Source: Candidatus Marinacidobacterales bacterium (GTDB lineage: Bacteria > Acidobacteriota > Vicinamibacteria > Marinacidobacterales > SMYC01). From it: DNA of 64,000 bases. The position numbers were made by a program, and so were the translations under genes. Under the pieces are notes generated by a model, which searched no databases, was not told the origin of the DNA, and saw nothing but the letters and a program-made list of their open reading frames with translations. Shown here piece after piece: positions 33,346-38,033 of the stretch. The stretch lies in NCBI GenBank assembly GCA_965237955.1, contig OZ250169.1, positions 5,056,001 through 5,120,000 of the forward strand, in the 5' to 3' direction. Every line of letters starts with the position of its first letter. The stretch's first letter is position 1.

Positions 33346-33672
33346 ATGCGCAATTGGATCTCGCAGGTTTCGTACATTCTTCGTAAGCTCGCGAAAGCGC
33401 CCGTGTTTACGGCCGTCTCGATACTGACGCTCGGCCTCGCCATTGGCGCCAACACCGCCATCTTCAGCGTGGTCAACAGTGTGCTTCTCGAGCCCCTGCC
33501 GTTCGAAGACCCCGAGCGGCTGGTTGGGGTATGGCACGAGGCGCCCGGGCTGAACTTCGACAAGCTCAGCCAATCGCCTGCATTGCATTTCACCTTTGTG
33601 GACCACAACACCGCGTTCGAAGACATTGGGATGTCGGTGGGAGTGAAGTTTCTACGAAGGAAAGATCCCTAG
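33346..33672 (+). pseudogene. ADOP-type (MacB-like) ABC permease N-terminal fragment
   Basis: LRKLAKAPVFT...LGLAIGANTAIFSVVNSVLLEPLPFEDPERLV; ends after about 108 aa. Confidence 0.85.
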
Positions 33673-34788
33673 CTCGAACGCCGAATCTGCGATCCACGTC
33701 ATCCACGCGCCGTAGATCAGGAGCATGATCGTTGCCTTGCCTATTCCTGCCTTCCTGCCCATGAGGAAGAGCGAAATCACCGCCACCGTTACCCACAGAA
33801 GCACGATGCGGAGCACTTGCACCTGGGCGGCCGACTCTCCGGCCACGGCGCTGAGCGAGACCTCGCCGAACAAGAGCGAGTAAGCAAGAAGCGGCAAACC
33901 GAGGGATACGCAGATATCGAAGATGTTGGAGCCGAGCGCGTTCGAAATGGCGTCGTCATAGAGGCCGTTGCGCGCGTCCTTGACGGAGAGCACGGTGTCG
34001 GGAACACTCGTCGCCGCCGCCGCGAGAACGACGGCGGTGAAATACGTCGGGATAGTCAATGCCTCGGCGGATTCGATGACGGCTTTCGCCAACAGGAGGC
34101 ACGCCGTACCTAGAACGACGATGGCGGCGCCGAGGACGGTCCACGCTGAGCCGGTCGTGTACGGCTTGCCATCGAAAAAGAGCGTGTTGAAGTCGAAGGT
34201 CAGAATCGCTCTGAGCTTGGAAGTCTTCTCGGGCGTTTCGTCTTCGGCCTCGTCCTCTTCGGGCGCGCTTCTATACTTTCGATTGTGGTACATGAGATGG
34301 AGGAAATACCCGACGTAGCACGCGAGCAATAGCGCGCCCGTGACCCACGTCAGCGTCGTGTTTCCGAGAAACACGATCAGCATGACCTCCCCGATCACGA
34401 GCCAAATCCCGTCGCGAAGGACGTTCTGTGAGTCGACTTCGATGTAGCGGACTTTGGATTCGACGCCGTCTTTCTTTGTGCCCCAGATCACAACCACGAA
34501 AATGCACAGAGCCGGAATGATGAGCCCGTTGAAGACTGCAGAGCCGGCGGCGGTGGCGACGCCGGCCGAAAAGCCGTCGAGATCTTGGTAGACGAACAGG
34601 AACACCGCCGTGGTGAGAAGCTCGGGCATCGACGAGCCGGCGGCGTTGATGGTAGCTCCTTTGATCCCGGCCGCCATGTTGCGGCCGAGATAGCTCGAAG
34701 CGGACTCGAACGTGTTGCTCGCGTACATAATCACGACGCTGGCGACGGTGATCAGTGCAAGGGACGTAAGAAGCTGCTCGAAATCCAT
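33652..34788 (-). CDS. Ca2+/cation antiporter (CaCA, YrbG/NCX-like)
   Basis: Alpha-1 repeat GSSMPE; alpha-2 repeat ATSVPD...GSNIFD; acidic central loop. Confidence 0.9.
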   Translation of the reverse strand: MDFEQLLTSLALITVASVVIMYASNTFESASSYLGRNMAAGIKGATINAAGSSMPELLTTAVFLFVYQDLDGFSAGVATAAGSAVFNGLIIPALCIFVVVIWGTKKDGVESKVRYIEVDSQNVLRDGIWLVIGEVMLIVFLGNTTLTWVTGALLLACYVGYFLHLMYHNRKYRSAPEEDEAEDETPEKTSKLRAILTFDFNTLFFDGKPYTTGSAWTVLGAAIVVLGTACLLLAKAVIESAEALTIPTYFTAVVLAAAATSVPDTVLSVKDARNGLYDDAISNALGSNIFDICVSLGLPLLAYSLLFGEVSLSAVAGESAAQVQVLRIVLLWVTVAVISLFLMGRKAGIGKATIMLLIYGAWMTWIADSAFELGIFPS

Positions 34789-34812
34789 CAGGGGGTCTTG
34801 TAGCGTTTGCAG

Positions 34813-36760
34813 CTATCGGTCGTCTTCTGCGACGACGACGAGACAATCTTCTTCGGTTAGTGTGATCTCCGAATCCTTGAGAGGGATCAGTTTAACACCC
34901 ATAGTTGGCGTCCGCATCGCCTTCGAGCGCTTTGAGCTTGTAGCCGAGACAGATTTCTTCGTCCCGTTTCTGGGCGACGCGCATGAGATCGCCGAACCGA
35001 CAGGTCGCCGGAAGGGAATCGAAATAGAGCCACGCGGGCTTGACATAGATCTCGGAGCCATCTTCTTGGAAGAGATTGGCGTACACCCGTTGAATGTCAG
35101 GCTCCTCGCTGATTTGAGCGAAAATCATCGACACCATGCGGTTCGAGATGATGAAGTCGTCGACGCCGGCGTGCGCTACCAGCTCTCGGTTGGCGGATTC
35201 GAGCACCTCGGTGATGAGCTTCGTCTCCACGATCTTTCCCGCATCGGTCAACACCTTTTGCAGTTTTCGCAAATGCAACAGCACGACGATCGTTTCCGAG
35301 TCGATGCGCTCCGGCTCGCTGTCCATCGATGGCTTCTGCGGGAGCACGATGACGTTATTGTAGAGGAACGGATCCATCGATTCGAGGTCGTTGCTGTCGA
35401 GAGGGTCCTTGTCGATCAGCCGGACTTGCACGGTACTGTTCTGATCGAGCTTTTCGATCGTCTCCGCGAGTTGTGGCGGCGGGTCTTTGATCATCACGTC
35501 GATCACGTAGTCGGCGTACTCCTGGATGATGATGGGCGCTTTGTAGCTCCAGCCGAGAATGGGCTGGCGCTCGAACTTCTGGTTGATACGCCGATCCGGA
35601 ATATCGCGAGCTTTCGGGATCATGACTGGCTGCGATATGTACTCGATGGTGGAATCGTCCTCGGCGACGATGAGGATCTCGTCGTCGGCCTTCATGACGG
35701 TGTCGAGCGCGGGGCGGATGACGATCTCGCCGTCGGGATTTCGGATCCCGATGGGAACGCCGTCCGGGAAATGGTACTGGAGCCGGTCGAACCTCAAGCC
35801 GTCCCACCTCGGGTTGTTGTGGAAATACATCTCACAACCTTCGAAGCTCAAGAGCTCCGAATACACGACGGCCAGTCCGCTCGTCCGAGACGTCTGCACC
35901 ATGATCTTCGCGAGGATCTCTTCGGCGTCGATGACGGAGACGATGTCGGGAGCGATGTCTTGCACGACCTGTCGGTTCCGCTCGGTGAACACCTCGGCGA
36001 CAATGGAGAAGTCGGCACCGTCCGCCATGCGTGAATCGAGCGCGAGAACGGTCTTGATGACCTTGGAGTCGCTCGCGAGCTTGACGTCGAGGCTCGCGGC
36101 CGGGTCGCACGAAGCGAGGACGATGGCAGACTTCGCGTCGCTTGCGCTCACCCGTTGAAGAGCTTGCACCGAGGCGGTGGGCCCGCTCCGGGTGACGACG
36201 CGGGTATTGCGCCGGTCGGTGAAGTTGGTCCGCAGGAACTCGTCCATCTTCTCTTGGTCGGTTTCCGATAGGATCACGACCACCGGGTCGGCCTCGCTCT
36301 CGTTCGCCTCGACGAGCTCGCGAAGGATCTCGATGACCCGAGGACCCCAGCCGAGGACGAGCGTATGTCCGGATTCGAGGACCTGGCTATGACCCTTCTT
36401 GAGGTGGGCAATCGCCTGGTCGAGGGCGGTCGTGAGAAAGGCAATCAACGCGGAGAAGATGACGACACCGGTGAGGCCGGCGACGACGGCCGCGGTCTTG
36501 AAGATCGACGGCGAGTCGTTGTCCTGGTTCATGTTCCCGGGGTCGGTGAGCTGCAGGAAGATGACCCAGATTTGCCCCGCGAAGTTGTGCTCCGTATCGG
36601 GCGCGATGGCGTTGAAAACGAACCGCATGAGCGCGATCAGGAGGATGGAGCCCAAAAACGCGAAGACGAGCGATACGAACAGAGCACTACTGCCGCGCGT
36701 AAGGAAACTGTCGACGCGGTAGCGCCATCGTTGTCGAAACGTCGCCTTATCCGATGCCAT
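34813..36760 (-). CDS. CASTOR/POLLUX-related cation channel with tandem RCK domains (one-base frameshift near 34898)
   Basis: TM-pore-TM with LTDPGN, GHTLVLGW, QTSRTSGLAVVYSELLSFEGCEMYF, FQEDGSEIYVKP; last 28 aa (GVKLIP...VVVAED) are in another frame. Confidence 0.88.
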
Positions 36761-36857
36761 GGATAGGGGTGGCCCTCGTTTGGAACGGGAATTGTCTAGA
36801 TTGTCAGTGAAGCGTTGTTACTAGTGTAGCAACTGGGGATAACCCTGCCACCCGTGT

Positions 36858-37352
36858 TCAGGGAGACAAAACACCGAGCCAGACGAGGGCGTACAGGGCG
36901 AGCGCGGCGTAAATGCCGCTAATGATGTCGTCCAGCACGATGCCCCACGAGCCGTGCATGTTCTGGTCGATCTGGCGTGCGGGCGGGATCTTGATGATGT
37001 CGAAAACGCGGAACAGGAGAAAACCCCAGAGCGCGACCTGCCACAGCTCACCGCCGCGGAAGAGGATGGGGACGACGAGATAGCCCGCTACCTCGTCGAG
37101 CACGAAATTGCGGGGATCTTCGTCTTTCCAGTACTTCACCGCCCACGGGGTGAGCCAATGATTCGCTGCCACCACCGCGACGAGCCCGAGGACGAGCGCG
37201 GGCACCTGCCAAGACGCCGGCGCGTAGAGTGCGATGGCAACGTGGTAGGCGACACCGGGCAAGGCGCCGAAGCTTCCCGGGGCAATGGGAGATAGCCCGA
37301 GGCCGAACGACGTGCCAATGGCAAGGTAGATGAACTCGCGAGCTCGGGACAT
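36858..37352 (-). CDS. pgpA: Phosphatidylglycerophosphatase A
   Basis: APGSFGA, DP...VLDEVAG, FRVFDIIK, GIVLDD. Confidence 0.93.
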   Translation of the reverse strand: MSRAREFIYLAIGTSFGLGLSPIAPGSFGALPGVAYHVAIALYAPASWQVPALVLGLVAVVAANHWLTPWAVKYWKDEDPRNFVLDEVAGYLVVPILFRGGELWQVALWGFLLFRVFDIIKIPPARQIDQNMHGSWGIVLDDIISGIYAALALYALVWLGVLSP

Positions 37353-37364
37353 GAACGCCGAACT

Positions 37365-38033
37365 TTAACGAGTTGGGTCGGTCGCGTCTACTGTTTTTCC
37401 GCCCTGATGGATTTCGGACTTGATGGATGCGGCCGTCGTCTTATTGATGTCCTTGCCGTGAGTGAGCCTGAGGCCGAGGCTCACGAACGCGATCCCTGCC
37501 CCGAGGTACACGAGATCGAGCGGCGTCGAAAACTTCATGTTGACGCACACCTGCAGGAAGGTAATCGTGAGGATCATCAGGACGACCTTCCCGAGCACGC
37601 TCTTGAGCTCCTCGAGTGAGCCGAAGACGAGCCAGTCCGGGCGAATGTCGGTTTGGTCGCGCGCTGGGTCGATGCGCGAGACGAACAGATCGTAAGAACC
37701 GAGCCCGAAAATCAAGAGCACGATCCCAACGAGGAAGTCGTCCACGGTTTTGATGACGGCCATGATGAGCTCGTTGTAGGTCAGAAGGCCGCGTCCGGTC
37801 TCTTCGGCGAGATGCAAGTGGTTCATCCACAGCGTCGCGAAGAAGTTTCCGACGAGATGGCTCGTCTCGAGGATGCCGAGGATGAAGACGACACTCGAGC
37901 CCATCAGAAGGCCGACGACACCAAGAACGATGACGAGGCGAAAGTACCAGAGGAAGTGCTCGAAGACGTGCTCGATCTTGGCACTCAAGCCGGTCAGACC
38001 GGACCGGCCCGACGGTGGGGACACGTCGCTCAT
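37365..38033 (-). CDS. YqhA/UPF0114 family membrane protein
   Basis: VDDFLVGIVLLIFGLGSYDLFVS...SLEELKSVLGKVV. Confidence 0.85.
   Translation of the reverse strand: MSDVSPPSGRSGLTGLSAKIEHVFEHFLWYFRLVIVLGVVGLLMGSSVVFILGILETSHLVGNFFATLWMNHLHLAEETGRGLLTYNELIMAVIKTVDDFLVGIVLLIFGLGSYDLFVSRIDPARDQTDIRPDWLVFGSLEELKSVLGKVVLMILTITFLQVCVNMKFSTPLDLVYLGAGIAFVSLGLRLTHGKDINKTTAASIKSEIHQGGKTVDATDPTR

Follow-up and report, generated by a model that had tools for sequence, protein, structure and literature searches.

The window analyzed here, 64,000 nucleotides of contig OZ250169.1, is a stretch of the one-contig, 8.1-Mb genome of a Candidatus Marinacidobacterales bacterium (genome G000, 97.96% complete) and carries, on its minus strand, the gene for a CASTOR/POLLUX-like cation channel followed by that for a Ca2+/cation antiporter (CaCA) exchanger. 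The gene order is yqhA-like, pgpA, channel, and CaCA exchanger, with gaps of 12, 97, and 24 bp, respectively, the last lying between the channel stop at 34813 and the exchanger ATG at 34788. An initial annotation of the window had described this arrangement, including the LTDPGN pore and tandem RCK domains of the channel, and domain searches bore out all four assignments (Table 1). Both protein families are known; their pairing is real, recurrent, and, apparently, undescribed.

Channel and exchanger

The channel scored 93.2 bits against PF06241 (cut-off, 26.7) and also matched the Slo-like RCK family, PF22614. Its strong PDB sequence matches were solely the gating rings of LjCASTOR and MtDMI1 (E = 1e-54), and no full-length CASTOR or DMI1 structure was found in the PDB set searched. 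An AlphaFold model of the orthologue from locus L026 (pLDDT, 82) had a pore helix in addition to two transmembrane (TM) helices and two RCK domains. Its top Foldseek match was LjCASTOR (6o7a; E = 2e-41), with Slo1 at E = 2e-25. The bacterial channel thus resembles plant CASTOR/POLLUX/DMI1 in its tandem-RCK ring (6o6j, 6o7a, 6o7c, and 7vm8; TM-score of 0.90 on the target; 29% identity), whereas the plant proteins have four TM segments and a long N terminus and the bacterial one has two TM helices and no long N terminus. This architecture equals that of a functional two-TM LjCASTOR construct with its RCK domains, which PMC6697748 describes as Ca2+ activated and Ca2+ selective (PCa/PNa of about 30). 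The same paper names two ion clusters, reports AD265S(A)GNHA as the filter, and records D265N and E493 mutants as nonfunctional. Some homologues are already named "ion channel POLLUX/CASTOR" or "sodium:calcium antiporter" in the databases.

A comparison with the Ca2+ sites of plant CASTOR, proposed in the initial annotation, gave a divided answer, in that the filter aspartate and cluster II are kept but the Ca(I) site is lost. The bacterial pore (TDPGNMN; plant, ADSGNHA) has a filter of the xDxGN type without TVGYG, and its plant counterpart was paired by motif, not by alignment. The other plant residue positions were transferred through the LjCASTOR/MtDMI1 alignment and tallied over 98 bacterial channels. 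The filter aspartate (CASTOR D265) was present in 93 and the filter glycine in 94, and cluster II was also conserved (A342 in 96, S345 in 88, E493 in 97, D553 in 98, and D554 in 96). The channel studied here has all of the cluster II ligands (A342, S345, E493, E552, D553, and D554), and the 15 exchanger-linked rows counted all keep D, E, D, and D at the conserved sites. When RCK1 was aligned with RCK2 (hhalign probability, 99.45), GCE paired with GSE and AEDDS paired with the terminal AEDDR. Most channels keep these RCK2 acids (E in 90, E in 85, and D in 80 of the 98 channels, with 5 to 7 rows gapped); therefore, a second cluster II-like site, formed in RCK2 by the C-terminal AEDD(R/E), is possible, at a position where the plant C terminus is unaligned. 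No channel-exchanger fusion was found among six matches of 663 to 2000 amino acids (aa), which is weak evidence.

The exchanger gave two matches to PF01699. Both of its alpha repeats are intact, it has a CaCA fold, and it carries the motifs GSSMPE, GSAVFN, ATSVPD, and GSNIFD. It shares this fold with NCKX (SLC24) and NCX_Mj/YrbG but has no large regulatory loop. It does not have GTSLPE in both repeats, as the YrbG/NCX_Mj type does, and falls under the cut-offs of TIGR00367 (109 versus 180 bits), PRK10734, and TIGR00927 (64 versus 710 bits; a model built on long animal proteins). When aligned to NCX_Mj and NCX1, 10 of the 12 NCX_Mj ion-site positions were identical, the changes being T50S and E213D, and D240 was kept. 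PMC8366772 gives T50 and E213 as the two ion-site positions that separate NCKX from NCX_Mj and identifies the NCKX carboxylates as E54/D213/D240; the exchanger has this carboxylate set and the NCKX signature motifs, and NCX_Mj itself has D240. The subfamily is broad (422 representatives at E <= 1e-30 in a 50%-identity library), the motifs hold across it, and in a tree built without NCKX sequences it forms a clade apart from the host's own YrbG-type copy. Judged from these residues, the exchanger belongs to a distinct CaCA subfamily with NCKX-type ion sites, and Na+/Ca2+ exchange is predicted. The host genome encodes nqrA, consistent with a Na+ gradient; that gene (G000:C1:2486521) lies about 17 kb from the second, YrbG-type CaCA gene (2503891-2504805). 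One member of the subfamily, P0270 (687 aa), has a cysteine-rich N-terminal extension and is possibly eukaryotic.

Recurrence of the pairing and other gene contexts

In a survey of CaCA genes beside prokaryotic CASTOR/POLLUX homologues, of the kind proposed in the initial annotation, 129 channel loci were gathered regardless of exchanger (37 from GTDB, 80 metagenomic, and 12 from a Bacteroidota sample) and dereplicated to 102 clusters with 178 neighbor positions. Neighbors were called by a codon-usage heuristic, so that some are possibly miscalled, and the Pfam scan omitted sixteen that had already been identified. A CaCA gene was the immediate neighbor in 12 of the 102 clusters, across phyla, compared to about 0.05 expected by chance from the CaCA gene density of six genomes, a rough null. 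Seven independent cases against this expectation give a Poisson p of about 2e-13, or 1e-8 at a five-fold higher base rate. The exchanger lies downstream in three host-family clusters (L026, L028, and L043; gaps of 18 to 31 bp) and in a planctomycete (L044), is convergent in three clusters of the Flavobacteriaceae type (L056, L057, and L113), lies upstream in L072, L125, and L074 (YrbG type; 40 bp), and is divergent in L083, which is cut by a contig end, and L138 (CAX). Beyond these 12, L145 and L146 have a CaCA gene 3 to 5 kb from the channel.

The pairs thus span four arrangements and three CaCA subfamilies (NCKX motif, YrbG type, and CAX). In FastTree phylogenies, from which rows shorter than 480 aa and the frameshifted L043 were excluded (leaving the 98 channel rows), the linked state changed 10 times on the channel tree, although such counts do not separate gain from loss. 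A single clade of the 11 NCKX-adjacent channels was rejected (p-AU, the approximately unbiased test, 5e-93), and the linked exchangers were spread over four distinct clades and, in addition, the other two subfamilies. Because gene orders and exchanger subfamilies vary, these comparisons argue for repeated gain of the pairing.

Whole-genome samples were also searched, with the center genome removed; a good many of the genomes are incomplete, and related ones do not count as independent. Among 40 relatives, the channel was found in 13 and the exchanger in 8, in all 8 directly behind the channel. For 250 Bacteroidota the numbers were 12 and 2, both exchanger carriers having the channel within about 3 to 5 kb, and for 155 Flavobacteriaceae they were 2 and 2, with 1 linked. 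The 230 Myxococcota included 37 with the channel and 8 with the exchanger, of which 4 share a genome with an unlinked channel and 4 have no channel; those 4 channels are 4 of the 6 close-clade channels. No further exchanger was found in 200 Verrucomicrobiota. The link is strong but facultative, not obligatory. A literature search that largely excluded subscription papers returned no account of bacterial CASTOR homologues or of the pairing, and nothing on the NCKX-motif exchanger subfamily or its TerD and phage contexts.

Other recurring channel neighbors also have to do with ions or Ca2+. They were Bax inhibitor-1 (BI-1; 4 loci), TerB (4), TerC (2), bestrophin (2), MscS (2), and CDF (2), and CaCA alone exceeded about five loci. 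In L085, L086, L094, and L140 the BI-1 family gene directly follows the channel; members of this family act as Ca2+ leak channels. A Bestrophin-Sel1-TerB fusion lies directly downstream of the channel (L126:4649-6346; L141:4137-4532), and L141 also has a bestrophin gene upstream of the channel. TerC is directly upstream in L068 and L069, and TerB-domain genes adjoin in L057, L058, L060, and L131.

Of 24 exchanger loci without the channel, 18 have a TerD or TerD-like gene beside the exchanger (all 12 viral loci and 6 of 12 bacterial loci), and no such gene was seen in any of the 129 loci with the channel. The bacteria in which the exchanger subfamily lies inside TerD clusters include Myxococcota. 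By hhalign (probability, 95.9), one flanking family without a Pfam match proved to be TerD-like but divergent; its members are in L155:2615-3256, L156:4969-5511, L166:2016-3194, L175, and L178. Exchangers of this subfamily were found in 38 phage records, most of them from Vibrio phages that are nearly identical (4 were read), and in 8 IMG/VR contigs; no match to a CASTOR-type channel was found in phages. The viral loci read were L169 to L172 (phages D93, J2-1, 1.084.O, and D69) and L173 to L180, of which L179 and L180 seem to come from a single virus. Marine phages place the NCKX-motif exchanger inside TerD clusters, as a phage ion-handling cassette, with a gene for a KcsA-like K+ channel next after the exchanger in phages 1.084.O and D69. 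PMC8123226 cites TerD as Ca2+ binding and involved in calcium homeostasis. Since the exchanger is found with one or the other of two Ca2+-binding partners, TerD and the channel, a calcium role is supported.

Integrity of the channel copy and neighboring features

As assembled, the channel open reading frame (ORF) runs from 36760 to 34892 on the minus strand (622 aa), and its tail continues in another frame until the stop at 34813. The initial annotation had noticed this one-base frameshift and proposed checking the reads at about 34898. The frameshift is indeed present in the assembly, but the surplus base was absent from every spanning contig of runs X1, X2, X3, X4, X8, and X10, which come from five studies. 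The X1 contigs, otherwise identical to the window, reach just 18 to 29 bases beyond 34898, and X1 is possibly the source of the window sequence; in X2, an identical contig without the surplus base bridges the site fully. Furthermore, five relatives were one base shorter at the CCC run in a DNA alignment, and the channel tail was in frame in all 32 full-length homologues. Since the spanning contigs of six runs lack the extra base, the channel frameshift is an assembly error, and a real inactivating frameshift was rejected. With the error discounted, the channel has 648 aa.

Three changes were missed by the initial annotation: a 15-bp deletion in RCK2, L400P, and D561A. The deletion and L400P lie within an X1 contig (500 bases, depth 23) identical to the window, and X3 and X4 contigs retain the 15 bases deleted at 35496; the in-frame deletion is real and strain specific. 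Several points weigh against a working channel in this lineage: L400P and D561A fall at conserved sites, a residue that is invariant elsewhere is altered in sister strains (G334R), and the channel of one 97% relative has only 529 aa. Among the best-supported channel differences listed between this strain and its sister strains, 10 of 21 were nonsynonymous, and gene fragments occur near the locus. This strain's copy may therefore be impaired or decaying, with the channel under relaxed selection and the module functional in relatives but not here. On the other hand, there is no genuine stop or frameshift, the pore and cluster II residues are all intact, the deletion falls in a loop, and a 96% relative (P0279) is full length. 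We regard relaxed selection in this lineage as plausible, if somewhat doubtful, and the family-level result is unaffected by it.

The upstream genes pgpA and yqhA were considered as module members and rejected, because they adjoin the channel solely in loci of this Acidobacteriota group. A promoter and terminator scan of the locus gave no signal exceeding that of shuffled sequence. Convergent with the exchanger is a fragment of an ADOP duplicated permease (33259-33672, plus strand; 137 aa, model positions 3 to 99 of 803). Beyond it, a heavy-metal-binding-domain gene (32434-33221, plus strand), longer in relatives, is split over two overlapping frames and differs by 2 bases at 33102 in runs X3 and X4. 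A chimeric-looking ORF at about 43330-44024 (plus strand), in which, by eye, a signal peptide and an S9-peptidase-like start are fused to an unrelated domain, suggests a deletion. In the relative G015 (C1:5557099-5566693), about 8 kb splits the channel gene, and the exchanger still lies directly behind the 3' part of the channel.

Table 1. Positions of the channel-exchanger pair and associated features in the window
Feature	Position	Strand	Basis or remark
CASTOR/POLLUX-like cation channel	34813..36760	-	PF06241 and PF22614; PDB 6o6j/6o7c/7vm8 matches
CaCA exchanger, NCKX-motif subfamily, 378 aa	33652..34788	-	PF01699
pgpA phosphatidylglycerophosphatase A	36858..37352	-	PF04608; synteny at family level only
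yqhA-like UPF0114 membrane protein	37365..38033	-	PF03350; synteny at family level only
CCC run with one surplus base (assembly error)	34898..34900		
Channel C-terminal 27 residues, ending in VVAEDDR	34813..34899	-	Acidic motif of cluster II in a second, pseudo-symmetric copy
15-bp in-frame deletion site (5 residues, RCK2)	35496..35497	-	Strain specific

Putative function of the pair

The initial annotation had suggested an influx/efflux circuit for Ca2+, and a form of this idea is the one that we favor, with a probability of roughly 0.5: the pair would be a minimal calcium in/out module in which a Ca2+-gated cation entry channel is joined to Na+-driven Ca2+ export. This figure applies jointly to the predictions that the channel is Ca2+ gated and Ca2+ permeable and that the exchanger exports Ca2+. 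By analogy with LjCASTOR, four channel subunits would form a pore above a ring of eight RCK domains, and Ca2+ at cluster II, possibly also at the second, C-terminal AEDD copy, would tune its opening. The medium being rich in Ca2+, the negative membrane potential would then draw Ca2+ into the cell. The exchanger, if it behaves like NCX_Mj and NCKX, would power Ca2+ export, perhaps together with K+, from the Na+ gradient and so end the rise. The most likely output would be a Ca2+ transient or set-point linked to stress, which agrees with the Ter-type neighbors. Neither the gene order nor the exchanger subfamily is constant, so the coupling is probably functional and not that of a fixed complex. 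A precedent for such coupling exists in photoreceptors, where a cation entry channel (CNG) is physically bound to the K+-dependent Ca2+ exchanger NCKX1, although the CNG channel family is unrelated to the CASTOR type. A part in mineralisation, also raised in the initial annotation, found no support, as no supporting neighbor recurs and only a single carbonic anhydrase was seen (L144).

The recurrence of the pair and its conserved sites speak for this calcium module, but several observations weigh against it. The bacterial channel lacks the cluster I Ca2+/Mg2+ network of plant CASTOR: D442, D444, H463, R589, and R590 are T, R, E, S, and Y here, D442 is D in 33 of the 98 channels, and the other four positions are variable and mostly lost. 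In the plant, a D442A mutant did not nodulate, according to PMC6697748. The great majority of channel clusters (90 of 102) have no CaCA neighbor; 200 Planctomycetota, again with the center genome removed, included 7 with the channel and 2 with the exchanger, and neither of the latter had both; and of the 14 genomes that carry the exchanger and belong to orders other than that of the host, 3 were linked, 4 had an unlinked channel, and 7 showed no channel. In 4 of the 38 phage records, of two types, a K+ channel with the filter TTIG(Y/F)GD lies within two genes of the exchanger. Finally, the plastid homologues PEC1/PEC2, of the same channel family and needed in stress-triggered Ca2+ release, are described as K+ conducting (PMC8644588); the passages covered give a plant-only phylogeny and no exchanger linkage.

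The main rival to the calcium module is a K+ counter-ion role, in which the channel would be a Ca2+-gated K+ or monovalent conductance that serves the exchanger through K+ return or charge balance, with Ca2+ entering elsewhere. This rival stays alive because the exchanger's phage partner is a K+ channel, in two phage lineages. The NCKX carboxylate set of the exchanger, the loss of the Ca(I) site, and the description of PEC1/2 as K+ conducting and, at first, of CASTOR/DMI1 as K+ channels are also in its favor. However, NCX_Mj has D240 yet no K+ dependence, the partners of the channel include exchangers of the CAX and YrbG types, for which no K+ requirement is known, and the channel has no TVGYG filter and keeps the filter aspartate in nearly all bacterial members. 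We consider the K+ role unlikely.

Also improbable, in our estimate, is a loose Ter-type regulon for envelope or ion stress, whose genes would cluster by coregulation and cotransfer and handle divalent cations side by side, uncoupled. TerD clusters are the commonest channel-free context of the exchanger, TerB and TerC adjoin the channel, and neither gene requires the other, since 4 Myxococcota genomes have both unlinked. Yet the host genome gave no match to TerD, TerD-like, TerB, or TerC (PF02342 and local queries) while the pair stays 18 to 31 bp apart family-wide, and TerD and the channel were never together beside the exchanger in the loci read. The likeness to Ter clusters of Myxococcota and marine phages (PMC7824862 and PMC8123226) is limited by the lack of TerD beside this pair, and the passages available from those two sources do not name a CaCA exchanger or a CASTOR channel as a Ter component. 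Adjacency by chance, or through one ancestral accident inherited since, might draw on the rough base rate and on the origin of 6 of the 12 linked clusters in two families (the host family and Flavobacteriaceae, 3 each), but it is largely refuted, and very improbable, given the seven independent cases, the three exchanger subfamilies, the four arrangements, and the nonmonophyly of the linked channels.

A stronger version of the calcium module is speculative, and we would not expect it to hold: a two-gene excitable Ca2+ unit, repeatedly assembled in bacteria, with Ca2+-induced Ca2+ entry, NCKX-type reset, and spikes, as a forerunner of the plant symbiotic oscillator. If it were true, the exchanger would be the first prokaryotic, and phage-borne, family of K+-dependent Na+/Ca2+ exchangers.

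Whether CASTOR/DMI1 is a Ca2+ conduit or a K+ counter-ion channel is disputed. The bacterial orthologues are natural two-TM versions of the construct that was recorded, and some carriers of the pair are in culture (under record titles with Cellulophaga and Flavivirga), so that gating, selectivity, and coupling are accessible to genetics. The exchanger subfamily, which offers small prokaryotic proteins with NCKX-type sites, is useful for the study of K+ coupling, and marine phages that carry it within TerD clusters connect the Ter system with Ca2+ transport. For the channel family itself, the recurring link to an exchanger is independent genomic evidence that it works with calcium.

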